Shown piece by piece: positions 7,048 to 62,015 of a stretch of DNA of 64,000 nt. The position numbers were made by a program, and so were the translations under genes. A model generated the notes under the pieces. That model searched no databases and was not told the DNA's origin. It was given only the letters and a program-made list of their open reading frames with translations. How positions within the stretch are numbered: position 1 is the first letter of the stretch; every line of letters begins with the position of its first letter. Source of the DNA: a virus. Taxonomy: Duplodnaviria; Caudoviricetes. The stretch is taken from IMG/VR virus record IMGVR_UViG_3300029305_005724, positions 32,001 to 96,000 of that record; one strand, given 5' to 3'.

Positions 7048-7059
7048 TAACAATAAAGT

Positions 7060-7180
7060 AAGGTTCTGTTTCATAGCCTAAAAACGCGTTTCATTTCAGA
7101 CTCTATCCTCAAAGAGTCAAAACACCTTCCTTAATTATATAAAATACCGGATAGCGTAAAACGTTATCCGGTATACTTTT
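7060..7180 (+). ncRNA. Candidate small RNA with anti-SD/anti-ATG tracts
   Basis: Late promoter 7049-7060 directly after the upstream stop codon. tttCAT occurs twice, CCTC sits in a hairpin loop, CACCTTCCTT follows, terminator at 7144-7180. Confidence 0.4.
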
Positions 7181-7270
7181 GATTACATATTATATTTATG
7201 AACTTAGAAGTAAATGATAAAAAGTTCGACATTTTTATCTCATTAAAATAAAGGAAAGGAGATTATTAAT

Positions 7271-7429
7271 ATGAGTAAAAATTATGGCGTAATCAATGAG
7301 CAGGGTTTCGTCGCAGGAAATAACCTCGGCTTTAATCCCCTCAGTGAATCCGACAAAAATGCACTTGACCAGAAGCAGAAGGCTACTGATGATAAAGATC
7401 AGAAGTCTAATAAAGAAAACAGCAAGTAA
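7271..7429 (+). CDS. Small hydrophilic protein, 52 aa (MSKNYGVINEQGF...KENSK), missing from the ORF track
   Basis: Strong RBS aaggaaaggag, early promoter at 7187, hairpin at about 7446-7476 after the stop. Confidence 0.75.
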   Translation: MSKNYGVINEQGFVAGNNLGFNPLSESDKNALDQKQKATDDKDQKSNKENSK

Positions 7430-7505
7430 TTCAACTCAAGTAACCCAGACCAGAAGCTACCACAGGCTTCTGGTCTAAAATTTTATTTAAGGAGAAGAAA
7501 AACAA

Positions 7506-8396
7506 ATGAAAACCACAAGAGTACAGAACAAGAAAAAGGCAATTAAAATAACTACAAATTTAATTGCTATCACGCTTTTTGCACTTATCGTTACAGTAAT
7601 AATTCTTTTAGCTTCTTTATTTATTGAGAATAAAGAAATTGAAAGAGATGATAATGATTCGTATATAAAAGCAGAAACAACAAGCTACAATAATTTTCAA
7701 ACAGAGCAAGTAGCAAAACCGGAAGTCAAGGCTCAAACTTATTATGTAAAATCTGGAGATTCCTTTTGGTCCATATCTAATGATTTTTATGGAACTGGAA
7801 TTTACTATACAGCTATTGCATACTATAATGAGCTTTCTACCACTTCTATTCTTCATATTGGAGATAAACTTTTAGTACCTAGTCTTGATGATGAAGCATT
7901 TATTAATCTTTATAATAATATTGTTTCTGGCAATCAGACAAAGGTTGAAGAGTTTAATAATTCTATGAAAGGGCAAACAATCAAAGCAGGAACTAATCAT
8001 AATTATAAATATGGAAAAAGGATGGATCCTGCAGTAGATATAACGGTCCCTTCTGGTAATGATATGAGAAATTATACTAAATCCGTGAATACATCTTCCT
8101 TTACATATCTTGGTAGTTATAAGATTACAGGATATACTCCTTCTTGTGAGCATTGCTGTGAAGCTACTGAAGGCATTGGAGCAAGTGGTGTTCAAATGAT
8201 TTGCGGATATAGTGTAGCCGCTCCTTATAACCTTCCATTCGGTACAACAATCTATATTGAAGGATATGGATTCTATGTTGTAGAAGATAGAGGTTATCTT
8301 GGAGATAGCACAATAGATATTGCTTGCCCTACGCATAATGATTGTTATGCTATTACAGGAAATAATATCAATGTCTATATCGTTCCTAATAATTAA
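7506..8396 (+). CDS. Membrane-anchored LysM + 3D-domain peptidoglycan-binding/lytic protein
   Basis: N-terminal basic stretch plus TM helix. LysM (YYVKSGDSFWSIS...LHIGDKLLVP) and 3D domain (ITGY, VAA...LPFGT.IYIEGYG..VVEDRG...IDI). Confidence 0.88.
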   Translation: MKTTRVQNKKKAIKITTNLIAITLFALIVTVIILLASLFIENKEIERDDNDSYIKAETTSYNNFQTEQVAKPEVKAQTYYVKSGDSFWSISNDFYGTGIYYTAIAYYNELSTTSILHIGDKLLVPSLDDEAFINLYNNIVSGNQTKVEEFNNSMKGQTIKAGTNHNYKYGKRMDPAVDITVPSGNDMRNYTKSVNTSSFTYLGSYKITGYTPSCEHCCEATEGIGASGVQMICGYSVAAPYNLPFGTTIYIEGYGFYVVEDRGYLGDSTIDIACPTHNDCYAITGNNINVYIVPNN

Positions 8397-8410
8397 ATAA
8401 AAATCTCAAT

Positions 8411-8989
8411 ATGGAGGAAATAATAATGGAAAACAAAATTCATCTCTACATCATTCAGACCGGTGTTATCTCTGAAAAGATTTGTACAACTGGAGATCAT
8501 GTATACCTTAGTAGTAGAATTCAGGATAATAATTTTGTCCGTTTCAATTATATGGGAGCGGCAGAATATGAATGGGGAGCATCTGGTAGAAGCTTCAAAA
8601 GAATCATGGATGAATTCGAAAAGTATTAACTGAATAAATCTAGATTCAAAAATGCAAATGATGTTCCTTTTTATATCTGGTGCAAGCCTGAAGATCTTGG
8701 TAAGATCGAAGATGCTATCCAGGATTATCTTGATTACAAAATCATTAATGGTAATCGTTCTTGGAGAGCACCCGATACAAGATTGAAAGAGCCTTGCCAT
8801 TTAAAAGCTCATCTCTTATATGATGAATATAAGAGCGATGTATGGGCTAGACAGCATAATAATTTCTGGTGGGATTTTGTAAATGATTGGATGGGATTCT
8901 TTGGAGCTGAAGACAGGGTCAAAGGATTTAATCTTGTCATGAAAAATGAATACCGTAGATATACAACTATAGATACAGAACACGTATAA
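8411..8989 (+). pseudogene. Single gene interrupted by one in-frame TAA (8627-8629); paralog of 9017..9505
   Basis: ORFs 8411..8629 and 8783..8989 share a frame, the gap between them is open, and the joined product is colinear with the next gene. Confidence 0.8.
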
Positions 8990-9016
8990 AATAAAATACA
9001 AAGGAGAGTACAGCTT

Positions 9017-9505
9017 ATGTATTTTTACACAGTTCAACCTTGTGAGGTAAAAGCAATATCTGCACCTCAGTCTCTTTATAAAAATGATAGTCTTCTCTAC
9101 ATCGAATCAATGGATTCTGATGATTTTGAAGAAGCAATGATCGACAACAGCTTCAATAGAATTTTTAATCATTATCAAGAGTATGTATACCTTCCTCTTG
9201 ATGAGTTTGCAAATGTTGATGGTGATATTCCTTATCTTCTTTGCAAACAAGATGACATTGAGGCAATTAAGAAACGTCTTAGAGACTATCTCAACCATCA
9301 ATACCCCGATAGAACTACCAAAGCTCCTTGTAGATTTCATTCTCATTATTCTAAAGGTGAAGGCGAAATGTATTGGAGGCAAAGAAAAACCACATTCTGG
9401 TGGGATATTGATAAGGACTTCATGCTAATGTTTATGAATTCTGGTGATATGGCTAGATTTGTAGATATTATGATAAAAGAGCATGATAGATTTTTACAAA
9501 AATAA
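9017..9505 (+). CDS. Hypothetical protein (FWWD motif)
   Basis: RBS aaggag; homologous to the preceding interrupted gene. Confidence 0.8.
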   Translation: MYFYTVQPCEVKAISAPQSLYKNDSLLYIESMDSDDFEEAMIDNSFNRIFNHYQEYVYLPLDEFANVDGDIPYLLCKQDDIEAIKKRLRDYLNHQYPDRTTKAPCRFHSHYSKGEGEMYWRQRKTTFWWDIDKDFMLMFMNSGDMARFVDIMIKEHDRFLQK

Positions 9506-9658
9506 TAAAAAACAAACTTTAAAATAATAAAGACTTGAGGATGGATTCGTCTGAGTCCATCCTCAAATTTGTTTAAAATAATTTATTTTTTATTTTAAAT
9601 AGATATTATAATATAGATAAAACAAATCTTTATTATAGAATTAAAGGAGGTAATTATT

Positions 9659-10534
9659 ATGCCTTATCCACTTGAAGATTTCTTTAAACAGGCTGAGCAG
9701 GTTCAGCCTACGAAACCTACACTGATTACAACGAATTTTGATCAGTTGAACAAAAATGTATTTAAAAATAGTATTCCATATATCTCTCAAATGGATGATC
9801 ATAATCTATCAGTATTGATAAAGAATAATATCGATACTATTTCTGCTGATATTTTACAGGAAGATCAAGACTATGCTCCATTGTTTAGAGATCAAAAGTT
9901 TCTATCTTGCTTCATTAGAGCAATAAACTCTATTCCTATTGACTACTCAACCAAATTAGCTTGTAATAAAATCACATATGATTACTTTACTTCTGATAAT
10001 CCTGAAAAGGAAATCAAGCAGCAATGCTTGAATATGAGTAGAATTGTAAACAGAGATGTGATAAATAAGCTTATTGCAATTGGTCTTGATGAAAATACAG
10101 CTTGCAATCTTGCATTAGCTAGATATTCATCTTCTAATGAAAAGACTAATGTAAAAAGATTGAACTTTACAATTTATCATAAAGATCCTGCTGTGATGAA
10201 TGAGCAGATGATTGTTTGGATTTACGAAAAGTTCTTTAATAGAATCTCTGACCTTTTCCAAGCTACAATGTTTGAAGTTTATACACCTCAACAGCAGTTA
10301 GATTTTGGTGAGAATTTTATGGAAGTATATGGAACAGTGAGTTTAGCTATTCTTACTATTCTTAATAATATGACTTCTGAAAATATCAGAAAGGTTCTAA
10401 TGGGTTATTCTATTGAATGGGAGTATATGCATTTCCCTCAAGTTAGATTCAGTCTACATGCATTGAGTGCTGATTATTCAAGAATCAGTCGTGTAGTATC
10501 TTACTTGACGGAAAACGGAACCAATATTCCGTAA
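9659..10534 (+). CDS. Hypothetical protein
   Basis: RBS aaggagg, promoter motifs upstream, terminator at about 10548-10586. Confidence 0.8.
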   Translation: MPYPLEDFFKQAEQVQPTKPTLITTNFDQLNKNVFKNSIPYISQMDDHNLSVLIKNNIDTISADILQEDQDYAPLFRDQKFLSCFIRAINSIPIDYSTKLACNKITYDYFTSDNPEKEIKQQCLNMSRIVNRDVINKLIAIGLDENTACNLALARYSSSNEKTNVKRLNFTIYHKDPAVMNEQMIVWIYEKFFNRISDLFQATMFEVYTPQQQLDFGENFMEVYGTVSLAILTILNNMTSENIRKVLMGYSIEWEYMHFPQVRFSLHALSADYSRISRVVSYLTENGTNIP

Positions 10535-10656
10535 TTGTTGCATATCAAGGCTATCTAGAAGGTTTTCTAGATAGCCTTTCTTTTTTAGTATTTTATACGG
10601 ACATTAACTTTTTAATAACTGAATAACTTGTAATAAGCTTACTGGAGGTACTTATT

Positions 10657-11082
10657 ATGGCAATTATTAAAGTAAAAGATTCTAGAGATTGTCTCCATGA
10701 AGGTGAGAATAGAAGTGATATTACACTTATTCTTACTAGATATGCTAACGAGACCAATTTAAATGAAAAATACGATGAAGTTAATAAGCTATATCGTAGA
10801 ACTTCTGCAAATCATCATGCACTCAATCATCTTACATATACCATGGATATGGCTAAAAAAGATGGTAACACTGAACTCATTGCTCAGACTGTAGTGGCTC
10901 TAATTTCTATTAGGCCTGAATTAGAGGAGCACTTTATCGATATTATTAATGCATTCATTATGCAGACTGATGATATTGAAAATATGAATTTTATTGATGA
11001 AGTTAGACGTATTGGAGCAGAACTAAATGAAGATTTTGGTGACTGTGAATCATGTGCTAATTTTGATGAAGAAAGTAAATAA
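10657..11082 (+). CDS. Hypothetical protein
   Basis: RBS ggagg; AACT-N6-TA at 10606. Confidence 0.75.
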   Translation: MAIIKVKDSRDCLHEGENRSDITLILTRYANETNLNEKYDEVNKLYRRTSANHHALNHLTYTMDMAKKDGNTELIAQTVVALISIRPELEEHFIDIINAFIMQTDDIENMNFIDEVRRIGAELNEDFGDCESCANFDEESK

Positions 11083-11102
11083 ACAATTTGGAGGATAAAA
11101 AG

Positions 11103-12347
11103 ATGGCAGGTATTTTATCTCAGCAGTTTAGAGCAACCGTTTCTAAACATAAAGACTTTCGAATGAAAGATGAATCGGCCGCTGGAGTTGGATACTCTAC
11201 TGGCTTTCTTAATTTTGATTTCATGAATGGAACTGTTGTTCACGTAAAATCAAAAGAAAGAAATTTTAATTATTATTCAGTAGGAATTCAAGATGGATGT
11301 CTTGTAATGCTTATTGGTAGATCTGGATGTGGTAAAACTACATGGGCAGTTCAGACCGCATCTAATATTGTAAGAAATTTTCCGACCGCTTGCGTGTTTC
11401 ATGACGATATTGAAGGTGGTCTTACAGAATATAGAAAAGAACTTCTTAGTGGATTCCATGGAGAAGATCTTCAGCTAAAATACCTATCGAGAAATACTGG
11501 TATTACGGCTGAAAACTTTTATGAGCGTCTTCGTATGATTCATGATCTTAAGATGGAGAATCGTGAAGACTATGAATACGATACGGGTTACTTTGATTCT
11601 CATGGTGAAAGAATTTATAAGCTTGAACCCACTGTATACATTCTAGACTCTGTTGCACTCCTAATGCCTGCACAGTATACTGAAGAGGAAGAACTCTCTG
11701 GTTCTATGAGTGCTACAGCTGCCGCAAAAACAAATTCTATGAGCTTTAAAAGAATCATTCCTATGCTTAAGAGTGCTAATATTATTCTTCTTATGATTAA
11801 TCATATTAATAAGAAAATTGATATTAATCCTATGCAGAGAACAAAAGCTCAGGTATCTTATCTAAAACAGGATGAATCGCTTCCTGGAGGCAATACAATT
11901 ATTTATCTCACAAACGTGCTTCTTCGTTTTGATGATAATTCGAAGATGAAAGAAGATGAAGCATTTGGCATTTCTGGAAACTTGGTAGATGTTACCCTTG
12001 TCAAGTCCAGAAATAATAGAGCTGGTAAAACTTGTACCCTTGTTTTTGATCAGAATAAAGGATTTGATCCGGAACTTTCATTATTTGTGATGCTGAAAAA
12101 TGCAAAGAAAATTAATGGAGCTGGTGCATACCTTTATATTGGAGACAAGTCTGAATATAAATTCTCCCAGAAGAACTTTAAAGAGAAATTAAGAGAAATC
12201 CCTGAACTTCGTAATGCATTTATTGAAGAAGTCATGGTAATGCTTAAGGAAGATCTTGATAAGAACGATTCTGGAGATGAAAACGATAATTTCGATTATT
12301 CGTTGAGCAGCGAAATCTTGTCGAAATTCAATCCGTCTCAAATGTAA
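11103..12347 (+). CDS. uvsX: RecA/UvsX-like recombinase
   Basis: Walker A GRSGCGKT, DIEG, Walker B YILDSVA, INHI, PGG and VKSR motifs. Start at ATG 11103 after ggagg. Confidence 0.85.
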   Translation: MAGILSQQFRATVSKHKDFRMKDESAAGVGYSTGFLNFDFMNGTVVHVKSKERNFNYYSVGIQDGCLVMLIGRSGCGKTTWAVQTASNIVRNFPTACVFHDDIEGGLTEYRKELLSGFHGEDLQLKYLSRNTGITAENFYERLRMIHDLKMENREDYEYDTGYFDSHGERIYKLEPTVYILDSVALLMPAQYTEEEELSGSMSATAAAKTNSMSFKRIIPMLKSANIILLMINHINKKIDINPMQRTKAQVSYLKQDESLPGGNTIIYLTNVLLRFDDNSKMKEDEAFGISGNLVDVTLVKSRNNRAGKTCTLVFDQNKGFDPELSLFVMLKNAKKINGAGAYLYIGDKSEYKFSQKNFKEKLREIPELRNAFIEEVMVMLKEDLDKNDSGDENDNFDYSLSSEILSKFNPSQM

Positions 12348-12435
12348 ATCTCTTCATAGAGATATATTATAGATCTGATGGAGCGAATAAGTTCCATCAG
12401 ATCTTTTAGTACTTACAACAAAGGAGAATGAAATT

Positions 12436-14682
12436 ATGGCAAATTTTAATCAAGTTGAAGATATAAAAAATTTAAATATCGAAAAATCTGATTATATGCT
12501 TGGTAAAGGATTGATGATGCCTTTTAATCCTACCAACTCTGGAAGCCGTAAAATAATGTATGGCTCTCAGGCAGAACAGAGATTAGGTATAACAAAACCG
12601 GACGTTCCTTATGTAGGAACTGGATATGAATCATTATTTGGACAGAACTCTTCGTCTTTCAATAAAGTAGAAGAAGATCTGGAAGTAATTGGTTGTGTAG
12701 CAAAATTTGAATGGTGTCCTATGCATCATTATTTTGTATTTGCAATTAATAGAGATAATGGAGGACTTAGAGTATTTGAAAGAAAAGAATATAAGCATAT
12801 TACTGAGAATTATGGTTATCTTCTTAATAATGATATGCTTGATGCTCTTGTCCCTGGAAATATGATTCCGAAAGGAACCGTTATTCAGAAAAGCAATGCT
12901 TTTGATGAATATGATAATAGAATGGATGGTAAGAATCTTCTCACATTGTATTCTTCTTGTGAAGAAACAATGGAAGATGCTATTGTCATCTCTGAGTCAG
13001 CATCAAAGAAGCTTTCATCTCCATTAATTAAGAAAGTGAGTATTATTGTTAATGATAATGATATTCCTCTTAATCTTTATGGAGATATTGAAAATTATAA
13101 AGTCTTCCCGGATATTGGAGAAGAAAGTGTAAATAGTATTTTATGTGGTTTCCGCAGAGAGAAGAAAGAGGAAGCACTGTTCTCACAATCATATGCAAGA
13201 CTTAGAGAGCTTTCGATCTCTGATGAAAAATACACAGTTGCTGGAAGAGTTGTAGATGTAGACGTATATTGCAACGCTCCTGAAAAGCTTGGAGAATACG
13301 AATACAATACGCAGTTTAAGAAATATTATGATAATAATTTAAGAATGGCTAATCAAATTATAGACATTCTTGATCCTTATATTGCAGAAGGTTGCGAAAT
13401 GGAGTATGATCTTCAAGTTCTATACTATAACTGCAAAGGAATACTTTCTGGAAAGCATTATTTCTCTGAAAGAGAGTTTTCGAATATTGTTATTAATGTA
13501 ACTTTAATTGAAGAAATTCCTGTATTAAGAGGTGATAAGCTTTCTAACCGTTATGGCGGTAAAGGTATTACAGCTAGAGTAAAGCCAGATGAATTAATGC
13601 CTAAAACATTAAGTGGAGAAACTGTTGATATTATTTTGAATATGTGTGGCGTTTATGGACGTGAAAATGCTGGACAGCTTTTTGAAATTACCGTCACATA
13701 TATTTGCATGAAAATAATTGAATTCATCAATCTTCAGGTTTTGGACATTGATCAGTGTATTGAGCTTTATTTAAATCTTCTTCGTATTGTATCACCTTCT
13801 ATGGCTGATTATACAGAAGAACAGTTCACTAAAATGACTGATGATGAATGCATAGCTTATATGGCAGGAATTTGTGCTACAGAAAAATGTATGTATCTTG
13901 CAATTGAGCCTATGAGTGAAGCAATGACACTTGATAAGGTCGAACAGCTTTATCAAGAATTTCCTTGGGCAAAAGCTGAACATATGCTGATGCCTATTAC
14001 AGATTCTGCTGGAGAGATTAAATATATTCCCTCTAGAAGGCCCTTAATTTATGGATACCAATATATCTATAGATTGAAGCAGTATGCAGAGGAGAAGTTT
14101 TCTGTAACTTCATTGTCTGCTACAAATATTCGTAATGAAAATAGTAAGAGCAAGAGTAGCAACAACTATAGAGCTCTATATTCTAGAACACCGATTCGTT
14201 TTGGCGATATGGAAACTGGAAACCTTATACACCTTGGAGCTGAACTTGTTGTTCAAATGCTTATGCTATATTCAACATCTCCTCATGCAAGACGTCTTGC
14301 TCAAGAGATGCTTACTGGCGATGCATTCAATATCGATGTTAAACTGGATGAGGAATCTAAGAATAGAAATGTTGAAATACTAAATGTTTATCTTAAAACA
14401 ATGGGATTAAAATTAGTATTCAGCAGAAAACCTAAACAGTACGAACAACCGATGTTGATTGAACCGATGTACTTCTATGATAATCCTCATAGACTTGTTG
14501 AAGGACTCATTCCGTTAAATAAAGATGAGAAATTTGATATGGAAGCTGAAGTTCTCAGACTTATTAAGGAAAAGAATCATGAACAATGGGCTATGGATAT
14601 CTATCCTATGGAGTTTACAAGAGAGCCTGGAGCTTATGAGAAAGAACTTGCTGCCAAAGAAGCAGCCAAGAAATCTGAATAA
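12436..14682 (+). CDS. RNA polymerase beta subunit, C-terminal half (probably non-virion RNAP)
   Basis: PFNPTNSGSR, EDAIVISES, GDKLSNRYGGKG, VDIILN, YIYRLKQ and RFGDME; early-type promoter. Confidence 0.92.
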   Translation: MANFNQVEDIKNLNIEKSDYMLGKGLMMPFNPTNSGSRKIMYGSQAEQRLGITKPDVPYVGTGYESLFGQNSSSFNKVEEDLEVIGCVAKFEWCPMHHYFVFAINRDNGGLRVFERKEYKHITENYGYLLNNDMLDALVPGNMIPKGTVIQKSNAFDEYDNRMDGKNLLTLYSSCEETMEDAIVISESASKKLSSPLIKKVSIIVNDNDIPLNLYGDIENYKVFPDIGEESVNSILCGFRREKKEEALFSQSYARLRELSISDEKYTVAGRVVDVDVYCNAPEKLGEYEYNTQFKKYYDNNLRMANQIIDILDPYIAEGCEMEYDLQVLYYNCKGILSGKHYFSEREFSNIVINVTLIEEIPVLRGDKLSNRYGGKGITARVKPDELMPKTLSGETVDIILNMCGVYGRENAGQLFEITVTYICMKIIEFINLQVLDIDQCIELYLNLLRIVSPSMADYTEEQFTKMTDDECIAYMAGICATEKCMYLAIEPMSEAMTLDKVEQLYQEFPWAKAEHMLMPITDSAGEIKYIPSRRPLIYGYQYIYRLKQYAEEKFSVTSLSATNIRNENSKSKSSNNYRALYSRTPIRFGDMETGNLIHLGAELVVQMLMLYSTSPHARRLAQEMLTGDAFNIDVKLDEESKNRNVEILNVYLKTMGLKLVFSRKPKQYEQPMLIEPMYFYDNPHRLVEGLIPLNKDEKFDMEAEVLRLIKEKNHEQWAMDIYPMEFTREPGAYEKELAAKEAAKKSE

Positions 14683-14791
14683 TAATGCTCAAAGCAATAA
14701 AGGCATAGTCATATTTGACTATGCCTTTATTTTTTATATTCTTTCTTAGTTATATAATATAATCTTGATAAAAAGAAAGGAGATAATTATT

Positions 14792-17086: not shown

Positions 17087-17281
17087 TAGATTAAGGGAGC
17101 ACTAATGCTCCCTTTTTCTTTTGCATATATTTGTAATAAAATTACATTTAACAAAAACCGTTGTAAAAAGTTACAAAGACTTAAACTTTTTAGTAATCGT
17201 ATATTATAAATTTGAAGATAAGTCTCTCAGTGGGAATTGAGAGACTTTCTTATATACAAAAATTTTAGGAGGATTTTTACC

Positions 17282-17893
17282 ATGAGCAAAACTTTCGAAT
17301 TCGAGCAGACCAGCATTCCCAGTCAATTTTCTATCAACCTGAAGGATAACTTCGGTATGTTGTGGGTAGACACTAGAAGTGCTGATCTCTATCGCACCCT
17401 GTTTTCTGCAATTGCAGATACTCTTAAGCATAATCAGTCTAAAGAGGCTGGCCGTATCGGAATGATCATGAAAGACGATAAGGGTCATTTCAAACTCGGT
17501 GCTATTCTTACCTATAAGAAGCCTGAGGAAGATTCTGAAGAGGATACCGGTAACTGGTATCTTGAGTTCACGCTCGATCCTGAAGATATGACGGATCTTG
17601 CGCTTGAGATCGATAACCATTCTGACGTATTTATTCGTTGTGCAGCTGAAGAGGCAAACAATATTTGTTATGGCCGTTTCCGCTCCACCGAAATCATGTA
17701 CAATATTTTCAACTGTGCAATTGACACCCTTGTACAGTTCCTCGATGTAAATGCAACTGAAGCAGATGATGTTGATGTAAATCTTCGTGGCATCTTTACA
17801 GCTTCTGTCGCAATCGAAGGCGGTAAGAAAGTGATGTCTATTGTTCCTGGAGAATATATCAAGCAGATTATCAAGAATGATGCTGCTCTCTGA
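17282..17893 (+). CDS. Acidic protein with apparent tandem HU/IHF-like fold
   Basis: C-terminal half helix-VNLRGIF-strand-KKVMSIVPGEYIKQII resembles the HU pattern VxLxGFG...KVPxFxPGKxLK. RBS aggagg and both promoter types upstream. Confidence 0.5.
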   Translation: MSKTFEFEQTSIPSQFSINLKDNFGMLWVDTRSADLYRTLFSAIADTLKHNQSKEAGRIGMIMKDDKGHFKLGAILTYKKPEEDSEEDTGNWYLEFTLDPEDMTDLALEIDNHSDVFIRCAAEEANNICYGRFRSTEIMYNIFNCAIDTLVQFLDVNATEADDVDVNLRGIFTASVAIEGGKKVMSIVPGEYIKQIIKNDAAL

Positions 17894-17979
17894 TAAATAA
17901 TCCAAGATAGAAAACCGGATGGTTTTTGGCCATCCGGTTTATTTTTAAACTATTATTTTATTTTTGGAGGGCGGATATT

Positions 17980-18621: not shown

Positions 18622-18623
18622 AT

Positions 18624-20402: not shown

Positions 20403-20616
20403 ATACTTTATCTATTCTGCAGAACAATTGCAGATGATGCGCTCAGTTGAATCTAGGCTAGGAAAGAAATTTCAGGTTGGACAAGTAATAGTAAATGGTG
20501 TTAAAAAGCCTTTTACAGAATTATCTCTAACTGATAAATCTCGATATAGTGATGCTAAAATTGTAGCGCAAGGCGATCCTGATAAAATGAGCTATACACT
20601 TCCTGGTGGGAGGTAA
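20383..20616 (+). CDS. Small basic hypothetical protein
   Basis: ggagg at 20369 then ATG 20383; overlaps the upstream stop. Confidence 0.7.
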   Translation: MAQTKIKYFIYSAEQLQMMRSVESRLGKKFQVGQVIVNGVKKPFTELSLTDKSRYSDAKIVAQGDPDKMSYTLPGGR

Positions 20617-20618
20617 AT

Positions 20619-24781: not shown

Positions 24782-24848
24782 ATATTAAAGGCATGGATAT
24801 ACTCCATGCCTTTATTTTTTTTACTTATGACAATTATAACAAAATATT

Positions 24849-25252
24849 AATCAGGCTTGCGTATTGGAGTTCGCCGTGGGCGCGCAGTTGGGTTCTTTTT
24901 CATTTTGTTTCCTTTCGGGTGAAAGTTTTCCATATATACCTCTGAAGTGTTTTTACGTTTTTGCCATGCGTTGAAACTCCATTTTTTATATATCCTTTGT
25001 GAAATTTTTGCAAATCATAAAAAACTCCGTTTTTTAATATTTCTCCATACGCATTCTTTTTATCAGCCTGATTACTTACTAAGATAATAGGTCATCTGAG
25101 TCTGTCGATCTTCCTAGTCTTAGTTTGTATAATCCAAAGATCGCCAGGACGCAGCGAACCTTCAATTTTCCATTTGATTGGGGGAGGGGCGTCAATATAT
25201 CATACAAAAAATGGATACAGCAGCATCTAAGAATAGATGCTGCTGTACGCTT
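24849..25252 (+). ncRNA. Candidate structured RNA carrying five tandem antisense RBS+ATG modules
   Basis: Late promoter with +1 at 24849. Closing stems taatcaggct/agcctgatta and tgcgta(t)tggag/ctccatacgca. CAT-N5-11-(CCTTT/CCTC/CTCC) five times. Further hairpins and a terminator at about 25216-25247. Confidence 0.6.
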
Positions 25253-26465: not shown

Positions 26466-26533
26466 CTTTTTCCTCCATTTTATATTTATCAAAATGTTCT
26501 AGTAATAAATAATAACGAGATAAACATAAAAAT

Positions 26534-26649
26534 AAATGCACTGATTTGCTCAAAGGGCATTTATATTTTCCTTTTATTTTTGTATGTACTAAGAATGGTA
26601 ACTCCTAAAGACGAGGCATGTACTCTTGTAGTACATGCCTTTGTTTTTT
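26534..26649 (+). ncRNA. Candidate small RNA with one antisense RBS+ATG module
   Basis: Promoter AACA-N6-TA at 26523-34; gggCAT-ttatatttt-CCTTTT; terminator at 26614-26649 with no + strand gene upstream to explain it. Confidence 0.55.
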
Positions 26650-28680: not shown

Positions 28681-28681
28681 T

Positions 28682-48564: not shown

Positions 48565-48663
48565 AAAAAGAAATATGCGATAGTCCGAAGACTATCGCAT
48601 ACGTACTTTATTACAATGAAAGGAGATAAACAAAATGAACTTCAACCGAAAACATCTTTGTTT
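48565..48663 (-). ncRNA. Candidate small RNA with one antisense RBS+ATG module
   Basis: Minus-strand AACA-N6-TA at 48663-74, right after the upstream stop codon. The RNA contains gaagttCAT-tttgtttat-CTCCTT and ends at a cUUCGg terminator (48574-48601). Confidence 0.55.
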
Positions 48664-48675
48664 ATATAGATGTTA

Positions 48676-49107: not shown

Positions 49108-49235
49108 ATCATGAGTCCTCCTAATTGATATTTATATAAATGTTGCTTGATTAGATATTATCATTATGAGCATAATATGAACTTTCATAATGCCAAAAAC
49201 AAAATTATAATATATTAAATGGAGGTATATTAGAA

Positions 49236-51787: not shown

Positions 51788-51863
51788 GAAAATGGAGGGT
51801 AGTAATACCCTCCATTCTTTTTTTTTGTAATTTAAAGGTTTTTTAATTGTATATCATTACAAT

Positions 51864-52124
51864 GAGAAAGAGAAGCATTAGAATCTCTTAATCCTTTTAT
51901 TCGTAGACATCTGATCTGCGCGCAATTGGATGTCGATTCGAAGCTACTTATTCTCATATAATATGCAGGAGGTGGTGAATTCAACCATTCTCCTTATTCA
52001 AAGCCTCCTGTGGTCATGTGGGACCCGGGATCATTCTGCTACTAGCACTAGCAGTCTGACCGTTATTAACCTCGAAAGAGTTTAATATATAAAACAAAAA
52101 TTTTACGCAAAGGAGAATGGTAAA
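51864..52124 (+). promoter_or_regulatory. Long structured 5' leader with mutually exclusive anti-SD pairings (riboswitch-like)
   Basis: accattctcctt (51984-95) is the exact complement of the downstream RBS region aaggagaatggt (52110-21); alternative pairing partners are present. Confidence 0.55.
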
Positions 52125-52457
52125 ATGGCACACGACAATACCGGCAGCAATTTTGCAGCAGAAGAGGATCTTATGAATAAAGAGTTCAGAAAGAATAACC
52201 TCAACAACATCAACAAAAAAGAGTTTGAAAAGGATATCAATCCGGAAAATCCTGCAAGCGAAATCAATAAGAAAAATGAAGAGCTTATTGATCCCATGGC
52301 TTGCGAAGCAAGTCCTGAAGAGCTCGAAGCTAAAAAGAAGAAATGGATGGACATCTTCCAAAGATGCCCTGATTTCGCAAATTGGATTCTTGAAATCTAT
52401 GAAGGAGTCGGATCTGCCGGCCTTGATGATATCATGAATGCATATTTCCATAACTAA
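52125..52457 (+). CDS. Small acidic hypothetical protein
   Basis: RBS aaggag; LIDPM motif; terminator at about 52475-52509. Confidence 0.75.
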   Translation: MAHDNTGSNFAAEEDLMNKEFRKNNLNNINKKEFEKDINPENPASEINKKNEELIDPMACEASPEELEAKKKKWMDIFQRCPDFANWILEIYEGVGSAGLDDIMNAYFHN

Positions 52458-52568
52458 TTTAAATTAGTTATGGAAAAGAAAGAGCTTTATAAAGCTCTTT
52501 CTTTTTTTTAATTACCTCATGTTAGCTTTATATAGAATCTAGAACGAAATATTAAGGGGTGATGAATT

Positions 52569-54104: not shown

Positions 54105-54193
54105 ATAAAGGATTCTTTAACGATATACTATAAAAGTGAATGAGAGAAGGAATAAATCCTTCTCTCATAATTTTTATAAGGAGGTACAGAATA

Positions 54194-55564
54194 ATGAAAG
54201 GAAAGGCAATTTTTAATCCTTTAGTTACGATGTACAAGTACGGAGCAGATAAAACAGCTCCACTCGCGAAAGACCGTGTAGCCGGTATTATCAATGATAA
54301 TGAGAGTGAAACCACTCGTAAAGATAATACAGCTACAACCACCACCAAAGTTGACGAAACTGTCAACGCAACAGATGTAGGAGAAGCAGCAAAGACTGCT
54401 GGCTCCGAATCCGCAGGATCTGATGGAGTCCTTGACTTTAGCATGTTTGGTGTCAAAATTGATACCGATGCAATGTCTGGAGCAGTCAGATTTGAATCGC
54501 AGGAAGAAGAGAAAGCCTGTGCAAGACGTATGGTAGACGATGCCATTCGTCGAAACGGCATCAATACAAATCCTGCGGCAAATCCCATTTTTGGTAATCA
54601 GCCTATGAACAAAGGAGCTCCTATGCAGGGTGCAAGTCAGCAGCCTGTTGTTGGAAGAGGTAGACATAAGGTTGATAACCCGACTCAGCAGAAGCCCAAG
54701 CCTCCTAAGGCAGAAGCGGATAATGTTGAGTTTACTCCCGGCGTTCTCAATATTGAAGTAGAGCCACCTAAGCCTCCTAAGACTTGGCCTGATCCTACGA
54801 ACAATGTTCTTGAGAATGCAGAGCCCATTCCCGAAACTGCTCAGTCCTTTGATAATTCTGCAGTGATTGCTCAGTTCAATCAATGTGCAGGACTTTTGAG
54901 GGATATTGAGAAGATTGCATCTGAGGTCGGAGTCCATGTCCAGATGATTTCGAAGCCCGGAAGCAATGGCCAGCCCAGTGGTTTGATCGAATGCTATGTG
55001 TATACAGGTCAGCCTACTCCGAATCCTTTCAAGGGATTCACAATCGACACCGGTGCTATCATCGATCGTCGAGTAAAGATCTTCCCTGCAATTGTTGAAG
55101 CAGGTTATGAGGATCTTCCCGCATATCCTGTAATGATTTCCAGAGATGGAAAGGAAGAATCTGACAATAAGAAGAAGGTTGTCGATGCTAAGTTGATTAA
55201 AACTCTTCTTGTCGGAGGTGCACAAATGCTTACTCCTAGCTCTATGTACACAAAAGATTATATGGAGCTTAATAAGCATGTAGCAATCATTACTATGCCT
55301 ACAAGTCACATGAATTCTGAGACTCGTAAGGCCGTTCGAGATCGCCTGCTCAATGCAATGAGATCTGGTCTCTTCGAAGAAGCAGCGAAAATCGATCAGT
55401 TCGCAAGATTCCGCTTTGTACCTAAGTCGTACAATAAGCAGACCCTTGAGTTCGAACTCTCTAGCCAGGGTGTTCCTTACAGATTCTGTGGTCCTTGCAT
55501 GAGCAAGAAAAATATCACAATCAAGTTTGGAAAAGATGGCAAGGCAACAATGTCTCATGAATAA
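54194..55564 (+). CDS. Hypothetical early protein with low-complexity Pro/Thr-rich N-half
   Basis: RBS aggagg before MKGK; early-type promoter at 54125; high-expression codons. Confidence 0.8.
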   Translation: MKGKAIFNPLVTMYKYGADKTAPLAKDRVAGIINDNESETTRKDNTATTTTKVDETVNATDVGEAAKTAGSESAGSDGVLDFSMFGVKIDTDAMSGAVRFESQEEEKACARRMVDDAIRRNGINTNPAANPIFGNQPMNKGAPMQGASQQPVVGRGRHKVDNPTQQKPKPPKAEADNVEFTPGVLNIEVEPPKPPKTWPDPTNNVLENAEPIPETAQSFDNSAVIAQFNQCAGLLRDIEKIASEVGVHVQMISKPGSNGQPSGLIECYVYTGQPTPNPFKGFTIDTGAIIDRRVKIFPAIVEAGYEDLPAYPVMISRDGKEESDNKKKVVDAKLIKTLLVGGAQMLTPSSMYTKDYMELNKHVAIITMPTSHMNSETRKAVRDRLLNAMRSGLFEEAAKIDQFARFRFVPKSYNKQTLEFELSSQGVPYRFCGPCMSKKNITIKFGKDGKATMSHE

Positions 55565-55655
55565 TCATTGGGCATTTGCCGATCCCAGGTACCTTTTGGT
55601 ACCTGGGATTATTTTTTAATGCTTCGGCAACTTTTAAGTAACAGTTTTAAGGAGA

Positions 55656-56450
55656 ATGAAAATCATGCCGAATGAATTAATAGAACCAATGGAGTTCTTT
55701 AAAATAGATAAAGTTTCAGATGATGTTTATGCTATTGGTCCTAATGTCATTCTGAAGTTTAATGTATCTCTATCCAAAATGTCAAATGGAAAGAGATTTC
55801 ATTTTCATAAAGAATATGAATATCCGTCGAGAGGCGTTCCGGGCCTTTCGACTCTTGTAACTATAAAAAGAAGTTTTGACTATTATCTTTCGATAGAAAA
55901 TATGACAAAAGATAATAGTGGAAATAAATTATTTATAAGAATTGGTCCTCAAGAATATATGATATTTAAAAGAGGACTTGAAGAAGCTATTTCCTGGTTT
56001 ACTGATAATAAATATGCAAAACTATTTGCAAGAGATAGAGGTAAACTAATTCTGATGCCTCCAGTACCAGAATTTGTAATGCAAAATCTTCCAATGCAAA
56101 AGTATATACACATTCAGCCAATTATTATTGATAGAGGTATGGCCAATGATGATAAAGAACCCGGTATTAGATTAACACTGGGTGATAATTCGAATGTAAT
56201 TGACATTAATCTTGATAGATTGATGGGATTATACTATACAATTTCTTGCTTTAATATGTATCAAGCAGCTTTGATCATGGTCAACTATATTCAAAGACCT
56301 GAATTTGGTACAAATCGCTTTGTGATGGAGCCTTCACATCTAATGGGTCAAGAATCTGGCGTAAGGTATGGCTCATCTGGAATAGAAGGAAGATTTGTAA
56401 CTCCTCAAGGAAGTCCAGACAATATAAAAACCTTGGAAGGAGGACAATAA
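55656..56450 (+). CDS. Hypothetical protein, possible PC4/PUR-like ssDNA-binding fold
   Basis: Two strand-strand-helix units (YLSIEN..LFIRIGPQEYMIFKRGL and GIRLTL..VIDINLDRLMGL); N-terminal LIEPMEF. Confidence 0.55.
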   Translation: MKIMPNELIEPMEFFKIDKVSDDVYAIGPNVILKFNVSLSKMSNGKRFHFHKEYEYPSRGVPGLSTLVTIKRSFDYYLSIENMTKDNSGNKLFIRIGPQEYMIFKRGLEEAISWFTDNKYAKLFARDRGKLILMPPVPEFVMQNLPMQKYIHIQPIIIDRGMANDDKEPGIRLTLGDNSNVIDINLDRLMGLYYTISCFNMYQAALIMVNYIQRPEFGTNRFVMEPSHLMGQESGVRYGSSGIEGRFVTPQGSPDNIKTLEGGQ

Positions 56451-56452
56451 CA

Positions 56453-57088
56453 ATGTTTAATCCAAATATGCATTTATTTTTCGATAAAGATGAAAGAGAG
56501 CCTGCTCTTAGATATCTTGTTATGAAATTCTTCAACGGAATGGAAAATAAAATGGATACAAGAGCATTGGCTGCTATGATTGATATGATGTATGGTGTAA
56601 ATACAGTAAAGATGGCAAATTATCTGGCTGTAGAAACCACTATAGTTGAAAAATATGAAAAAGCAATATTAGAATATTGCTCATTCGTAGATATTGATGC
56701 TGAGATTATGTCATATAATCCAGGACAATTTGTTGTTAAGTCAATAGTCAATCAGGCTTTAAAAGGTCCAGAATCTTTTGCACCATTAATGTACTGGGAT
56801 CCTGGTAGAGAGTGGAATTTTAATAATGTGCCAAAAGAAGGAGCTTTAATGAATCCTTTAAATCATTACGTTCATTCTTCTCTTACTTTAAAGAATGTAG
56901 AATACCAAAAACTTCGCAATTTTGCTGTAAAAGCTTTACGTGAAGATTTTAAACTACTTAATAAAGCTTTTAATGATTTAGATAAGCAGAATACGAATAA
57001 AACTGCTACTCTAACAATTGAGCTTTTACCATGTGATACTTATAAAAATATAATAAATATCACAGATACATTACATTTGTATTTTTAA
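56453..57088 (+). CDS. Hypothetical protein
   Basis: RBS ggagg; operonic. Confidence 0.78.
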   Translation: MFNPNMHLFFDKDEREPALRYLVMKFFNGMENKMDTRALAAMIDMMYGVNTVKMANYLAVETTIVEKYEKAILEYCSFVDIDAEIMSYNPGQFVVKSIVNQALKGPESFAPLMYWDPGREWNFNNVPKEGALMNPLNHYVHSSLTLKNVEYQKLRNFAVKALREDFKLLNKAFNDLDKQNTNKTATLTIELLPCDTYKNIINITDTLHLYF

Positions 57089-57102
57089 GGAGGAGAAAAA
57101 AA

Positions 57103-57465
57103 ATGGATTACTTGATAGAGCATTTTATAAGAGTTCTAGATTCTTATAAGACCTTGAGAAAGGAATATACAAGAAATAGTGATGGTAGCTATACCATTGA
57201 TATTTATGATATCCCTCCAGAACTAGATCTAGAGCTTTCTAGACTTAGCTACGATGAGGTTATAGGACAGAAAGAGACTAAAGATAAACATGGACGTGTT
57301 ATTGGAGTAGAAAAGATTACTCAAACTACAATGTGTTTTGTTGGTATCGGAGAAGGACTTAATCTTAGGCTTGTTCTCGATAAAGATACATATGCTAAAA
57401 AGATGAATCTAATAGATCCAATTCTTAGGAGATATTTTGCAGCACATCGAAACCTCGGCTTTTAA
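57103..57465 (+). CDS. Hypothetical protein
   Basis: RBS aaggagg; bidirectional terminator at about 57466-57509. Confidence 0.78.
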   Translation: MDYLIEHFIRVLDSYKTLRKEYTRNSDGSYTIDIYDIPPELDLELSRLSYDEVIGQKETKDKHGRVIGVEKITQTTMCFVGIGEGLNLRLVLDKDTYAKKMNLIDPILRRYFAAHRNLGF

Positions 57466-57508
57466 AAATGATAAGGATAGAACGAAAATCGTTCTATCCT
57501 TATCATTT

Positions 57509-58276
57509 TTATACAGTAAAGATAAGAGGCTGATGCGCATTAGCAGCAGAAACATGAGCATCATCTAGTCTTTCTATAATCTCATCTCTCTTAGAAGCCT
57601 TACTCTCAAGATCCCCAATCTTAATATCGATATTTGCAAATACAGTTTCTAATCCTTCATAATACTTTAAATTTTCATACAAGAATTTAGCTACATCTGC
57701 TTCAGCCAATTCTTCAAAAATTTCCATCATAGAAGGGGGAATAGTCATAAGATTAGGAGCATGTTTAATAAATATTTCTAATGGAAAAGAATTCATTCCT
57801 CTCGTAATGTCTGCTCCAGTAACAGTTGAAATCTTAACCATATTAGGAGGTCTATATTCTACAAAGATCTGGTTGTTGAATAGCGACATATGGTCAGCTC
57901 TCATTTGTAGGAGAGCAATATCATCTAAACCATAATTATTTGTCATAAAATCATAAGTTCCATATCCTTGTGCTTCTTGCAGCCTTAAACTATCTCTTGA
58001 AAATAGAGACCAGTCTATATCTCTTACTCCTATAACTTCAACACCCTCTGGTACATATTCATCGATAAGGTAATAGCCATCTCTTCTTCTTTGAGCTAGG
58101 CTAATTTGTATATGCATAGAATTTGGAAAATATCTACTAAAAGTATCAAGTGTTTCGTTAGCTATAACTTCTTCGGCCCAAACAGATTTGCATATATCTT
58201 CAGGAAGATTTAGCTGTTTAGTGCCAAGACGACGCTCTATTTTATTCAATAAGGCGTTCATTTTATTCATTGGCAT
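57509..58276 (-). CDS. Neck/head-completion protein (T4 gp13-like, tentative)
   Basis: LLNKIERRLG ... ETLDTFSRYFP N-terminus; adjacent to terminase. Confidence 0.5.
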   Translation of the reverse strand: MPMNKMNALLNKIERRLGTKQLNLPEDICKSVWAEEVIANETLDTFSRYFPNSMHIQISLAQRRRDGYYLIDEYVPEGVEVIGVRDIDWSLFSRDSLRLQEAQGYGTYDFMTNNYGLDDIALLQMRADHMSLFNNQIFVEYRPPNMVKISTVTGADITRGMNSFPLEIFIKHAPNLMTIPPSMMEIFEELAEADVAKFLYENLKYYEGLETVFANIDIKIGDLESKASKRDEIIERLDDAHVSAANAHQPLIFTV

Positions 58277-58362
58277 AATGATAACACCTCCATATAAACT
58301 TTATTTATTATAAATGTTAAACGATTAAGAGGAGCATGAACAACATGCTCCTCCAATCTATA

Positions 58363-60540
58363 TTACCAATATTTACTTAAATTACCGACATTAATAGTAT
58401 CCTTCATATACTCTTCTTCAGGATCGCTGTTAAAGTTTAAAAATACATCTGTTGGGATAGTTTGCACAGTAGTCTGTGCCTGAGGAACTACAACATGATA
58501 CCTATCAGCCAAAGTCTTCTGAACTAGTTTATCATTTAATAGTCTATCCATAGCAGCTTGATCTCTTGCTGTTTCAGACTTCATCCAATCTTCATATAAT
58601 TGACGACCAGGAGCATTTTCCAACTCTTCGAGCTGTTCATTAATCTCCTCATTATCAGAAATATCAAGAGTTTGAGTCATATCAGACTGGGGTTCACGAA
58701 TATCGGTTACGGCTTCTTCCAGATCTGCATCTGTTCTAAGCACACGTCTTGTGATACCCCAGTTGTTCATTAAGTCTCCACCTTTATAATATACATAAAG
58801 CGCCCATAGCCATGAAAATACTTGGTCGTCGTGAGTATTGGAACTGTGTTCGACTTTACCATTCTTTTTAACTTCCATGCCGCAGAGTTCTTCATATATT
58901 GTAGGTGAAATAATTTTATCTTTATGGTATTCTACACGATCTCTTAATATCTCAACGAGTTCTTCACGCTCTGCTTTTGTAGAATCAGATCCGTAAACTT
59001 TAGTTTTCTGTGTTCTCTTATGAATAGCAGATCCCATTATTCTTTCTTCAACAACCTTATCCTTAATTGTATAGAATAGATTTTTCTTGATTGAAGTTTG
59101 TAATAGGCGTGCTATAACACTAGATCCAAAACCGCCGTTACGTTCTATATTTACTACAGCATTGGGCAACCATTGAGAAACGATGTGGTGAATAACCATT
59201 GCTAATTCTGGTGTAGAAATAAAGTTGCTATTGAGTTCTGCAACTACTCTTGTACTATAAGAGTCTACTACCGTAATAGCAGATGAGTCTCTTTGATATC
59301 CTCCAGATACGTCAACACCAATAATCGGAGGATATTGAATATTGAATCTTTCAAATATCTTTAATTCATACTTGTTGAATAGAAGTATTGTATTAATCGG
59401 CTGTCTCAATAGACCTTTAATAGTATCAAGATCTTCAGCTCTAAAGGGAGAATTTTCAGAAGAATTCGACCATTCGAGAAGAACCTCGCGGCGGATATCA
59501 TCCCACTTCTTATTCATCGCCATGCAAAGCTGCTTGAACCACTGTTCAGTCTTACCAAGCTGCTGATATGTATACTTAATATATACGAATGTAGAATTCG
59601 TATTTGTCTCAATAATATTTTGAATTTGTTCCTTGCTAAGATCATACCATCTTTCGCTAAACGGAGTTGCAGCCTCTTTAAGGTTGAATGCCTCAATACC
59701 CTCATCTGTTGTAAGCATACCAGGAGTTGTTGTAATTAGCATACCATAAGGAGTTCCATTACGTCTAGCATTATTAGATGCAGTATTAAATGCAGGGACC
59801 ATGTTTGTATAAATAATCGTATTATACTGAATAAAGCCATACTCGTCTATATAAATTAAAGGCGTTGTACGACCACGCATTAGGCTGGCTGCTGCAACTT
59901 TGTTTCTTGCAGATGCTACTGTTCTAATACGGTTATTATTAACTGGGTGCTGCATAGTCTCTACGTTATTCTTTCCTCTAACCTTTACACCATCCGGTCC
60001 AAAGGCCTGGTCCATAACAAGATAACTTGGTAGCAGTTCACGTATATCTTTAATACGCTGCAAGTTTAATTTAGAGTCTTCAAATTTCTTATTTAAGAAT
60101 GTCATTTCAGCATTTGCCGTTCCAAAATTAAACAAATACAAATACCATGCAAGACTCGAAATAGTTTTACCTGTCTGACGAGGCTGCTCTAAGAAAATAT
60201 TCAAATTCATCATCAGACAGAAAAGAAGAGCTAAATTTCCACGGGTTAATTCGAATTTAACACCAGTCTTTTGACCAGAGTCTGGAATACGAACAACTTC
60301 TCTGAAAAAGTACCATGGATTATATATACATTCTCGTAAAACTTTTTGTTTCATGATCGAATTTAAATTAGGATCATGAGGATCAATTCTGGCCAAATCA
60401 GGATCTAGCAATACGAGCATAAATCTATAGTTTCCTATACCAGTTTCTTTCAAATAATTTGAAACTTCCAGGAAACTTTTATTAGTCGTACTCATATGAT
60501 AGTAGATTGTGGTCTGTGTTTTACCATACATTACGGCCAT
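58363..60540 (-). CDS. terL: Terminase large subunit
   Basis: PRQTGKT, IYIDEYGF, TTTPG, nuclease motif GVDVSGG..RDSS, IERNG and HDDQV. Confidence 0.93.
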   Translation of the reverse strand: MAVMYGKTQTTIYYHMSTTNKSFLEVSNYLKETGIGNYRFMLVLLDPDLARIDPHDPNLNSIMKQKVLRECIYNPWYFFREVVRIPDSGQKTGVKFELTRGNLALLFCLMMNLNIFLEQPRQTGKTISSLAWYLYLFNFGTANAEMTFLNKKFEDSKLNLQRIKDIRELLPSYLVMDQAFGPDGVKVRGKNNVETMQHPVNNNRIRTVASARNKVAAASLMRGRTTPLIYIDEYGFIQYNTIIYTNMVPAFNTASNNARRNGTPYGMLITTTPGMLTTDEGIEAFNLKEAATPFSERWYDLSKEQIQNIIETNTNSTFVYIKYTYQQLGKTEQWFKQLCMAMNKKWDDIRREVLLEWSNSSENSPFRAEDLDTIKGLLRQPINTILLFNKYELKIFERFNIQYPPIIGVDVSGGYQRDSSAITVVDSYSTRVVAELNSNFISTPELAMVIHHIVSQWLPNAVVNIERNGGFGSSVIARLLQTSIKKNLFYTIKDKVVEERIMGSAIHKRTQKTKVYGSDSTKAEREELVEILRDRVEYHKDKIISPTIYEELCGMEVKKNGKVEHSSNTHDDQVFSWLWALYVYYKGGDLMNNWGITRRVLRTDADLEEAVTDIREPQSDMTQTLDISDNEEINEQLEELENAPGRQLYEDWMKSETARDQAAMDRLLNDKLVQKTLADRYHVVVPQAQTTVQTIPTDVFLNFNSDPEEEYMKDTINVGNLSKYW

Positions 60541-60648
60541 AAGATTAGCCTCCTTTCTTATAAAATGAAAAGAGAAATTTTATATTAATTATAAGTTGGC
60601 TGCTAAAGAAAATATGAGGAGTCCGAAGACTCCTCATATCGTGTGTGT

Positions 60649-61470
60649 TTAGACCTTCTTTTTCAGACAATAATTCTGAATCTCATTTGCAATATGATTT
60701 TCGAGATTTACTATAAAAATATCTCCAGTTTTAGCTACAAGCCTAACCTGACTGCCATTATTAATAACAGTTGCAGACTCGTACAAGAAATCAATCTGAT
60801 TGATCAAAGATCTGATATTAGCAGATTCATTCTTAATATAGCTAAGCACGCTAGCATTTGTAATAGGAATAAGCAGTCCATTTTTATTCATAGATTCGAT
60901 AGGCTTATTAGCAAATCCTGCAGATTCTGTTACAAGCTTCGTAGTATATGCATGAGGATGAGAAGGATAGATAACTCTATCCCAAGTAATAACTTTAAGA
61001 TTTTGAACGACATTACGACCCTTAATAGTTTCAAGAGATCCAAGAGCTCTCAAAGACCAGCTAGGAAGAACTCCTTCTCTAAGATCCTGGTCAAATTCTT
61101 CACCAAGAGCATTATTTGTACCCTTAAAATGAGCCATAACATTATTTCCATCCATCCAAATCTTAAGGAAACGAGCTACGGTATTATTGGGATCAATAGT
61201 CTGCTGACGAATCATAGCACTATCCATAGGATGACCATTCTCGGACAGCATATTTCCCGTACTAAGCAATTCTTTTGTTCTTGCGCAATTTATTTCACGA
61301 AGAAGATCGTTATGAAGATAGCAGCGGCCATTTCTATTTTCTTCTTCTGCAGTTTGAATAATTCCTTCTCCAATTACTCTTTTGCCATTCTCAGAAATAA
61401 CCTTTGCTTCCTGAGCTTCCAAAGGAGCACTTTCGAGGATTACATATCCAATCGTTTTATTCATAGGCAT
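60649..61470 (-). CDS. Prohead core protease (T4 gp21-like)
   Basis: NRNGRCY, ENGHP, SWSLRALGS and ITWDRV..PS; late promoter at 61496-507. Confidence 0.88.
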   Translation of the reverse strand: MPMNKTIGYVILESAPLEAQEAKVISENGKRVIGEGIIQTAEEENRNGRCYLHNDLLREINCARTKELLSTGNMLSENGHPMDSAMIRQQTIDPNNTVARFLKIWMDGNNVMAHFKGTNNALGEEFDQDLREGVLPSWSLRALGSLETIKGRNVVQNLKVITWDRVIYPSHPHAYTTKLVTESAGFANKPIESMNKNGLLIPITNASVLSYIKNESANIRSLINQIDFLYESATVINNGSQVRLVAKTGDIFIVNLENHIANEIQNYCLKKKV

Positions 61471-61562
61471 TGTATACGCACCTCCTAGTTTCATTTATCG
61501 ATATGTTGGCAGTTTAAGACTTTTTAGGCATTAAAAAGATATTACAAAGCCAACGATATAAT

Positions 61563-61915
61563 GAGAGATTATTTCGATTACGGGTATGTAAGCGTGTGGA
61601 TACAGGTGATCGATACTTTTATCAAAATGTATTTTGCATTTGATAAGAGGACATCTCTTATATAAGTTTATTAAGAACTCGAGAGCTTAATAAACTTTGG
61701 GAGGATATGAAAGCTGAAGAAGTATATTTCGTAAATATATAGACCCTAAACTATATATTTGCTATAGCGATATATACGTCTTTTCTAGATTTGGAGGTGA
61801 TGGCCCAAATCTAGAGAAAATAATGAGATGACTAATGAATGAAATGTATGTAAGGTCCCTTTATACAGGGCCCGGCCTATAGGCTGAGTCTAAGCAGCCT
61901 ATAGGTTTTACTTTT
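61563..61915 (+). ncRNA. Candidate highly structured non-coding RNA
   Basis: AACG-N6-TG at 61552-63, then a run of long hairpins (61664-97, 61781-820, 61876-905 plus T-tract); no long ORF. Confidence 0.55.
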
Positions 61916-61933
61916 TAAAAATAACATATATTT

Positions 61934-62015
61934 GAAGCTCGTGAGATTTTTTCTTTTCTGGTTTTATTCCTTTCACCCGTGTACTCAGTCCTAGAGTGCA
62001 CGGGGCTTTTATTTT
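61934..62015 (+). ncRNA. Candidate ~80-nt small RNA with U-rich anti-SD tract
   Basis: AACA-N6-TG at 61923-34; ttattCCTTTc; terminator cccgtgtactc/gagtgcacggg plus T-run. Confidence 0.4.

Follow-up and report, generated by a model that had tools for sequence, protein, structure and literature searches.

Small late-promoter RNA genes predicted to mirror ribosome-binding sites in an AR9/PBS1-like gut jumbo phage

Introduction

In lytic jumbo phages the timing of gene expression is attributed to phage-encoded RNA polymerases, and occlusion of the Shine-Dalgarno (SD) site by a pyrimidine-rich seed is a well-known mechanism. The virus record IMGVR_UViG_3300029305_005724 (223,865 bases, a 224-kb genome) raises the question of what is encoded in five of its intergenic stretches, where a late promoter and a terminator enclose the complement of translation-initiation regions. 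We analysed a window of 64,000 nucleotides (positions 32001-96000 of the record; coordinates below refer to this window unless a genome position is given). A first-pass annotation had read the five units as small RNAs that are antisense copies of translation-initiation regions, and had proposed a programmable set of guides silencing host mRNAs or early phage genes.

The source phage and its set of late units

Judged by its gene content, the source is an AR9/PBS1-like gut jumbo phage, because its SbcC-like protein shares about 26% identity with those of AR9, PBS1 and LPJP1 and because it encodes several beta-type subunits of a phage multisubunit RNA polymerase. Near-identical DNA was found in cattle and animal gut sequencing runs, with long and close pieces in all four of four runs (four studies). 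A Bacillota host is suggested by the strong use of SD sites and by one protein family, and the Atlas entry did not go beyond "Bacillota".

Of 153 confident genes, 40 are preceded in the sense direction by AACA-N6-T(A/G), the consensus of AR9 late promoters (PMC7598289), versus 5 in antisense. We then scanned the genome for gene-free stretches bounded by this promoter and a downstream terminator, and excluded as artefacts those cases in which the motif overlapped real minus-strand gene starts. The scan recovered the five window units (A to E, Table 1) and two outside the window, F (genome 101253-101387) and G (genome 195412-195238). The window units had an AR9-type late promoter, a body of 50-370 nt without a conserved ORF, and an intrinsic terminator formed in all five by a strong hairpin and a U-rich tail. 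All five were present where the first-pass annotation had placed them. We call the complement of an SD site together with that of a start codon a module. Among the two cases it had rated as weaker, both units exist; the one at 7060-7180 carries a single weak module, and the one at 61934-62012 an anti-SD tract without an anti-AUG module. Genes flanking the units were unrelated or belonged to no family, and no Rfam covariance model, including RsaE/RoxS, csRNA and C4, matched in the window at gathering score. An eighth short late unit, H, was observed at genome 17655-17728, outside the window; it is syntenic in G001 (92757-92848) and had no conserved target.

Table 1. Features of units A to E and of the candidate target of unit B. 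Late-promoter motifs start at 7049, 24838, 26523 and 61923 on the plus strand and at 48674 on the minus strand.
Feature	Position in window	Strand	Description
Unit D	7049..7180	+	promoter 7049-7060, RNA 7060-7180, terminator 7144-7174; one weak module, without an established target
Candidate target gene 17282	17200..17893 (CDS 17282-17893)	+	conserved, 203 aa; early-type motif at 17200
Predicted unit B target	17253..17290	+	start of gene 17282 (leader, SD, first codons); duplex -33.8 kcal/mol
Unit A late promoter	24838..24849	+	AACA-N6-TA, +1 at 24849; matching promoter at this site in most close relatives
Unit A RNA	24849..25252	+	~400 nt, predicted structured; five anti-SD/anti-AUG modules; no target established
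Unit B late promoter	26523..26534	+	columns invariant in 11 orthologues (mean column identity 41%)
Unit B RNA	26534..26646	+	~110 nt; 5' hairpin, anti-target blocks, terminator 26613-26641
Unit C	48568..48674	-	promoter 48674-48663, ~95-nt RNA, terminator ~48601-48574
Unit E	61923..62012	+	promoter 61923-61934, ~80-nt RNA, terminator 61976-62004

The modules were more frequent than expected from base composition. The seven units of the genome contained 9 antisense SD+ATG modules and none in sense, compared to 1.9 in dinucleotide shuffles; unit A alone contained 5, versus 1.0 in shuffles (p=0.002), and again none in sense. This confirms the five modules that the first-pass annotation counted in unit A. 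Taken singly, the short units did not reach significance (p 0.06-0.24).

Conservation and strand bias in related phages

Orthologous units were collected from four long genomes and, in about 20 relatives, from the surroundings of the gene that separates A from B, and were selected by synteny, not by motif. Syntenic units are kept in about ten related lineages, in which the bodies diverge and the promoters are invariant, and conservation is highest in the anti-SD core. At around 44% identity, most lineages are without these units.

In 39 units we counted 55 anti-SD motifs on the RNA strand versus 7 on the opposite strand (18 expected), and 39 anti-SD+AUG modules versus 4 (12 expected). The relatives alone gave 43 anti-SD motifs versus 6 in sense (14.4 expected) and 30 versus 4 anti-SD+AUG modules (10.6 expected), and the complement of AUG followed 18 of 40 anti-SD sites compared to a background of 24% (p=0.0025); the bias was present in every unit family, and close relatives within these counts are not independent of each other. 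The central proposal of the first-pass annotation, small late-promoter RNAs antisense to translation-initiation regions, gains support from synteny, conserved promoters and this strand bias.

Could the modules be chance occurrences or decayed gene starts in AT-rich spacers, with no RNA function? The promoter motif is short, with 219 matches genome-wide, single units were not significant, and two relatives are without some of the units. Against this, the bias is strong in units that were picked by synteny, and invariant promoters together with position-conserved anti-SD tracts reach across many lineages at 57-70% protein identity. We consider chance very unlikely. More improbable still is that the opposite strand is the functional one and is translated into micro-ORFs. 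Read on that strand each module is indeed an SD followed by an ATG and 3-50 codons, but promoter and terminator face the other way, the encoded peptides are not conserved across lineages, and in unit A, for which no opposite-strand promoter was found, the bidirectional terminator would shut such transcription off and other strains carry one-base indels. Even taken jointly, micro-ORFs and chance retain little probability. The phage and its relatives carry at least seven small non-coding genes on late promoters whose predicted RNAs mirror ribosome-binding sites.

Candidate targets of units B and C among the phage's own genes

Units A to E are intergenic and do not overlap a target on the opposite strand, the two predicted targets being 9 kb and 32 kb distant; cis-antisense RNA was ruled out. 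Ungapped matching did not reveal targets: neither exact 14-mer nor ATG-anchored searches against the phage's own gene starts gave anything above a chimeric null, so that short-word matching, which the first-pass annotation had put forward as a check, identified no own gene. A 15-nt match between unit A and thyX was considered and was not significant. Duplex energy was then used to rank all start regions within a genome, and ranks of orthologues were pooled; the energies take no account of accessibility, and some gene starts of relatives are called wrongly. With all units taken together, pairing within the own genome was at its best no stronger than pairing with a sister genome (Wilcoxon p=0.53), and units A, D, E and F had no conserved own-genome target in the combined ranking. 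Two units, B and C, were predicted to pair with one conserved gene start each.

Almost every relative with more than about 60% protein identity has a unit B, as does the distant genome G004. In three genomes the start of gene 17282 ranked 2 of 199, 1 of 194 and 8 of 157 as its partner (p=0.004 versus permuted orthology, 83 orthologue sets). In the predicted duplex the first codons are covered by block 26545-52, the SD by 26566-73 and the leader by 26576-86, and a second anti-SD block (26595-609) could also pair with the SD and start codon of this gene. The statement that the window holds no matching gene starts thus stands for ungapped matches and fails for pairing with bulges. The literal antisense ATG previously read in unit B differs from the register of the predicted duplex, and with a predicted pairing that is bulged and partial, the description as antisense copies lacks support.

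In a six-by-six matrix of unit B RNAs and target leaders, three of the six rows being discovery genomes, the cognate assignment was the best of 720 permutations. In L038 the second codon of the 17282 orthologue is changed and the block in the unit B RNA is changed to match. Further loci gave weaker results: the target fell at the 4th, 11th, 45th and 80th percentile in the four non-discovery loci (Fisher p=0.12), in two of which a neighbouring gene fits unit B better than the 17282 orthologue does, and adding G004 gave p=0.037.

Unit C occurs in two genomes, and its predicted target is the start of thyX (PF02511; genome 112312, outside the window), which ranked 1 of 199 and 1 of 157 (p=0.009). 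Cognate energies were -35.7 and -31.4 kcal/mol versus -22.3 and -13.3 for swapped pairs, a cost of 13-18 kcal/mol. In G001 and G004, which are without unit C, thyX was the top match of another late RNA, an observation made post hoc. Because eight units were tested, corrected p values are about 0.03 for unit B and about 0.07 for unit C. Of the two options in the first-pass annotation, silencing of phage genes late in infection is the one for which positive target evidence was obtained, namely the bulged pairing of B with 17282 and of C with thyX; support from the four further loci is weak.

Gene 17282 encodes a protein of 203 aa with no homologue among solved structures or GenBank phages. A low-confidence structural model (pLDDT 61) gave a weak match to single-chain IHF (Z 5.1), a faint hint of a tandem HU/IHF-like fold. 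The early-type AT-rich motif at 17200 is kept in three of four genomes and is a variant in the fourth; this type of motif is only twofold enriched (27 versus 14), and the gene carries a late motif as well. A strong hairpin in the leader (17221-17246), directly upstream of the predicted pairing stretch, is kept with different sequence in four genomes.

The remaining short units

Predicted folds of C and E consist of a 5' hairpin, an unpaired anti-SD tract and the terminator, and those of B and D are similar. The anti-AUG part of unit C would be hidden in its 5' hairpin with the anti-SD unpaired. In unit E the anti-AUG is absent in this genome, and at its site three relatives have anti-SD units. 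C and D were found in G002, where D has a syntenic unit with an anti-SD; E, F and G occur in two or three further genomes. Unit G leans to a polymerase-subunit gene at window 18624 (p=0.027, four genomes). Just before unit E lies a region (61500-61910) that is similar at its 3' end (61846-61878) to the terminal part of a late RNA unit of 256 nt in G002 and whose upstream part is occupied by a short plus-strand ORF; it is possibly a disrupted or replaced RNA gene.

Unit A and the host as a possible target

The RNA of unit A is predicted to be closed by a stem that begins at +1 (24849-24869 with 25043-25073; fold z -4.1) and encloses all five modules, with CAT at 24901, 24931, 24965, 24980 and 25016; a bidirectional terminator follows at 25216-25247. 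Apart from L022, all close relatives have a unit A, often with a closing stem from +1, and the bodies are unrelated in sequence. Tandem promoter-terminator pairs were observed at the unit A site of some relatives (L013:3946-4755, L015:3955-4834, L025:3916-4760), the upstream unit apparently with an early-type motif.

The label "programmable" could not be upheld because neither repeats nor swapping of modules nor a recognisable RNA-binding partner protein was found. No 9-mer is repeated within unit A in three genomes, and there is no regular period. Among the few strains available (L042 and four sequencing runs) the modules are kept, with just point changes and one-base indels (25018, 25030, 25057 and 25206), and neither spacer gain or exchange nor swapped modules were found; relatives close to the phage drift by point changes and small indels. 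A domain search of the phage genome found no Hfq or ProQ.

The main role of the units, above all of unit A, might be silencing of host mRNAs, each module fitting one host gene start. Unit A carries five initiation-region-like modules without a conserved phage target, its sequence turns over completely between lineages as would be expected if their hosts differ, and an intergenic sRNA of phage phiR1-37, misc_4, has been proposed to target host mRNAs (PMC4848604). On the other hand, own genes explain B and C better, late timing would be poorly suited to host defence, and exact searches were negative. GTDB (185,579 species genomes) contained no exact match to a 23-mer from module 2 of unit A or to a 20-mer from a module in G002, and JGI metagenomes none to a gapped conserved pattern of unit F, results that exclude only perfect copies in the genomes searched; in viral contigs the unit F pattern matched nothing but the orthologous RNA gene. 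When phages and plasmids were searched with unit A by BLASTn, all matches were at chance level (best E 0.02), and the unit A of a relative had no match in E. coli. The guess that one module of a relative corresponds to a gammaproteobacterial serS start found no support. We regard host silencing as the main role as unlikely. Still less likely is a further-reaching reading in which, beyond self-regulation, unit A would act as a multi-guide RNA: every one of the five modules inside the closing stem would block its own host mRNA, and each phage lineage would have adapted the modules anew to its host. If this were true, it would be an arrayed, protein-free silencing system in a lytic phage.

Proposed mode of action

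Translation brakes made by the phage against itself are the most likely reading, and not programmable host guides, because two units track one own-gene start across lineages. We consider it somewhat better than an even chance that the units encode trans-acting sRNAs that brake the phage's own mRNAs and turn down earlier proteins late in infection, with at least two of them co-evolving with their targets (B with 17282, C with thyX). As suggested by the promoter motif, the units would be transcribed by the non-virion RNA polymerase. In the predicted folds an unpaired, pyrimidine-rich anti-SD toehold is exposed, often beside a 5' hairpin that hides the anti-AUG. The toehold would pair with the SD site, strand invasion would carry a bulged duplex across the start codon into the first codons, and the 30S subunit would be excluded, by analogy to known Firmicute sRNAs such as RoxS on ppnKB and to c4 on ant mRNA. 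The likely purpose would be to lower early or DNA-metabolism products late, e.g. a DNA-binding protein and thymidylate synthase. Unit A RNA probably does likewise to several mRNAs.

The anti-SD core could instead pair loosely with many strong-SD messages of phage and host and act as a broad sponge that tunes ribosome allocation, specific targets being minor. This would fit the core being the best conserved element, the absence of a general own-genome advantage, and the preference of unit B in some lineages for neighbouring genes of the same region. However, B and C each have anti-AUG and anti-coding blocks that covary with a single gene, and the late genes of the phage have strong SDs and would be hit too. 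This reading appears quite improbable to us. Should the braking of own mRNAs be real, the battery of late RNAs against ribosome sites would represent a post-transcriptional off-switch for earlier phage genes that is absent from the papers found, and the two covarying pairs offer concrete RNA-target cases that can be tested without culturing the phage.

Relation to known systems

The closest bacterial counterparts are the C-rich trans-acting sRNAs of Firmicutes, RoxS/RsaE, FsrA and CsfG, of which RoxS acts on ppnKB (PMC8216469). Like these, the phage units are stand-alone RNA genes with predicted unpaired pyrimidine-rich seeds and imperfect SD pairing; some of the Firmicute RNAs also have several seeds, and the phage genome is without Hfq. 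The Firmicute RNAs, however, are bacterial, conserved in sequence and have experimentally shown metabolic targets, whereas the units described here are encoded by a phage on a phage late promoter, diverge rapidly and have no Rfam match. Among phages, the c4 antisense RNA of P1/P7 acts on ant mRNA (reviewed in PMC12197685) and is likewise a phage RNA that works in trans on the ribosome-binding region of an own mRNA via exposed complementary stretches, as predicted here. It is one processed RNA of a temperate phage that serves immunity through one target operon; here there are at least seven separate RNA genes in a lytic jumbo phage, without a match to the Rfam C4 model.

That intergenic sRNAs are made in jumbo phages is known from phiR1-37 (misc_4, PMC4848604) and 201phi2-1 (PMC11512511). 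They too are small non-coding RNAs in jumbo phages that encode RNA polymerases, the present ones being proposed from sequence alone; compared by their descriptions, neither an anti-SD design nor a family nor a validated target has been described for them. Unit A resembles CRISPR and VIPR arrays (10.64898/2026.04.26.720920) in stringing several variable modules in one RNA, and differs in having no repeats, regular period, recognisable adjacent effector gene or spacer exchange between strains. In the literature searched, no lytic phage was described as having late anti-SD RNAs as a genome-wide set. New here are the whole-genome set of units, the strand statistics for orthologues chosen by synteny, and two cognate pairs that can be tested.

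Other features of the genome

The AR9 late promoter requires uracils in the template. The present AR9-like phage encodes ThyX (L007:312-1712, genome 112312-113712), as do five relatives, which hints at thymine DNA.

Several further regions attracted attention. Outside the window, a 304-aa ORF without Pfam match precedes a non-coding stretch of about 680 nt that is GC-richer and arranged in loose pentamers (L004:5862-7521), and this region looks VIPR-like (10.64898/2026.04.26.720920). A reverse transcriptase gene (PF00078) adjoins an AAC-rich repeat with tail-fibre-like genes near (L008:17630-19117 and around L009:1500; genome 147630-149600), an arrangement as in a diversity-generating retroelement. 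The polymerase genes contain two group I intron-like inserts (L012:5997-6081 and genome ~199800-200700), one with a tRNA-Leu and the other with an HNH-like ORF. Within the window, a 17-bp unit is repeated eight times in tandem at 5589-5720 in a gene-free region of 900 bp, which might represent an origin or packaging site.
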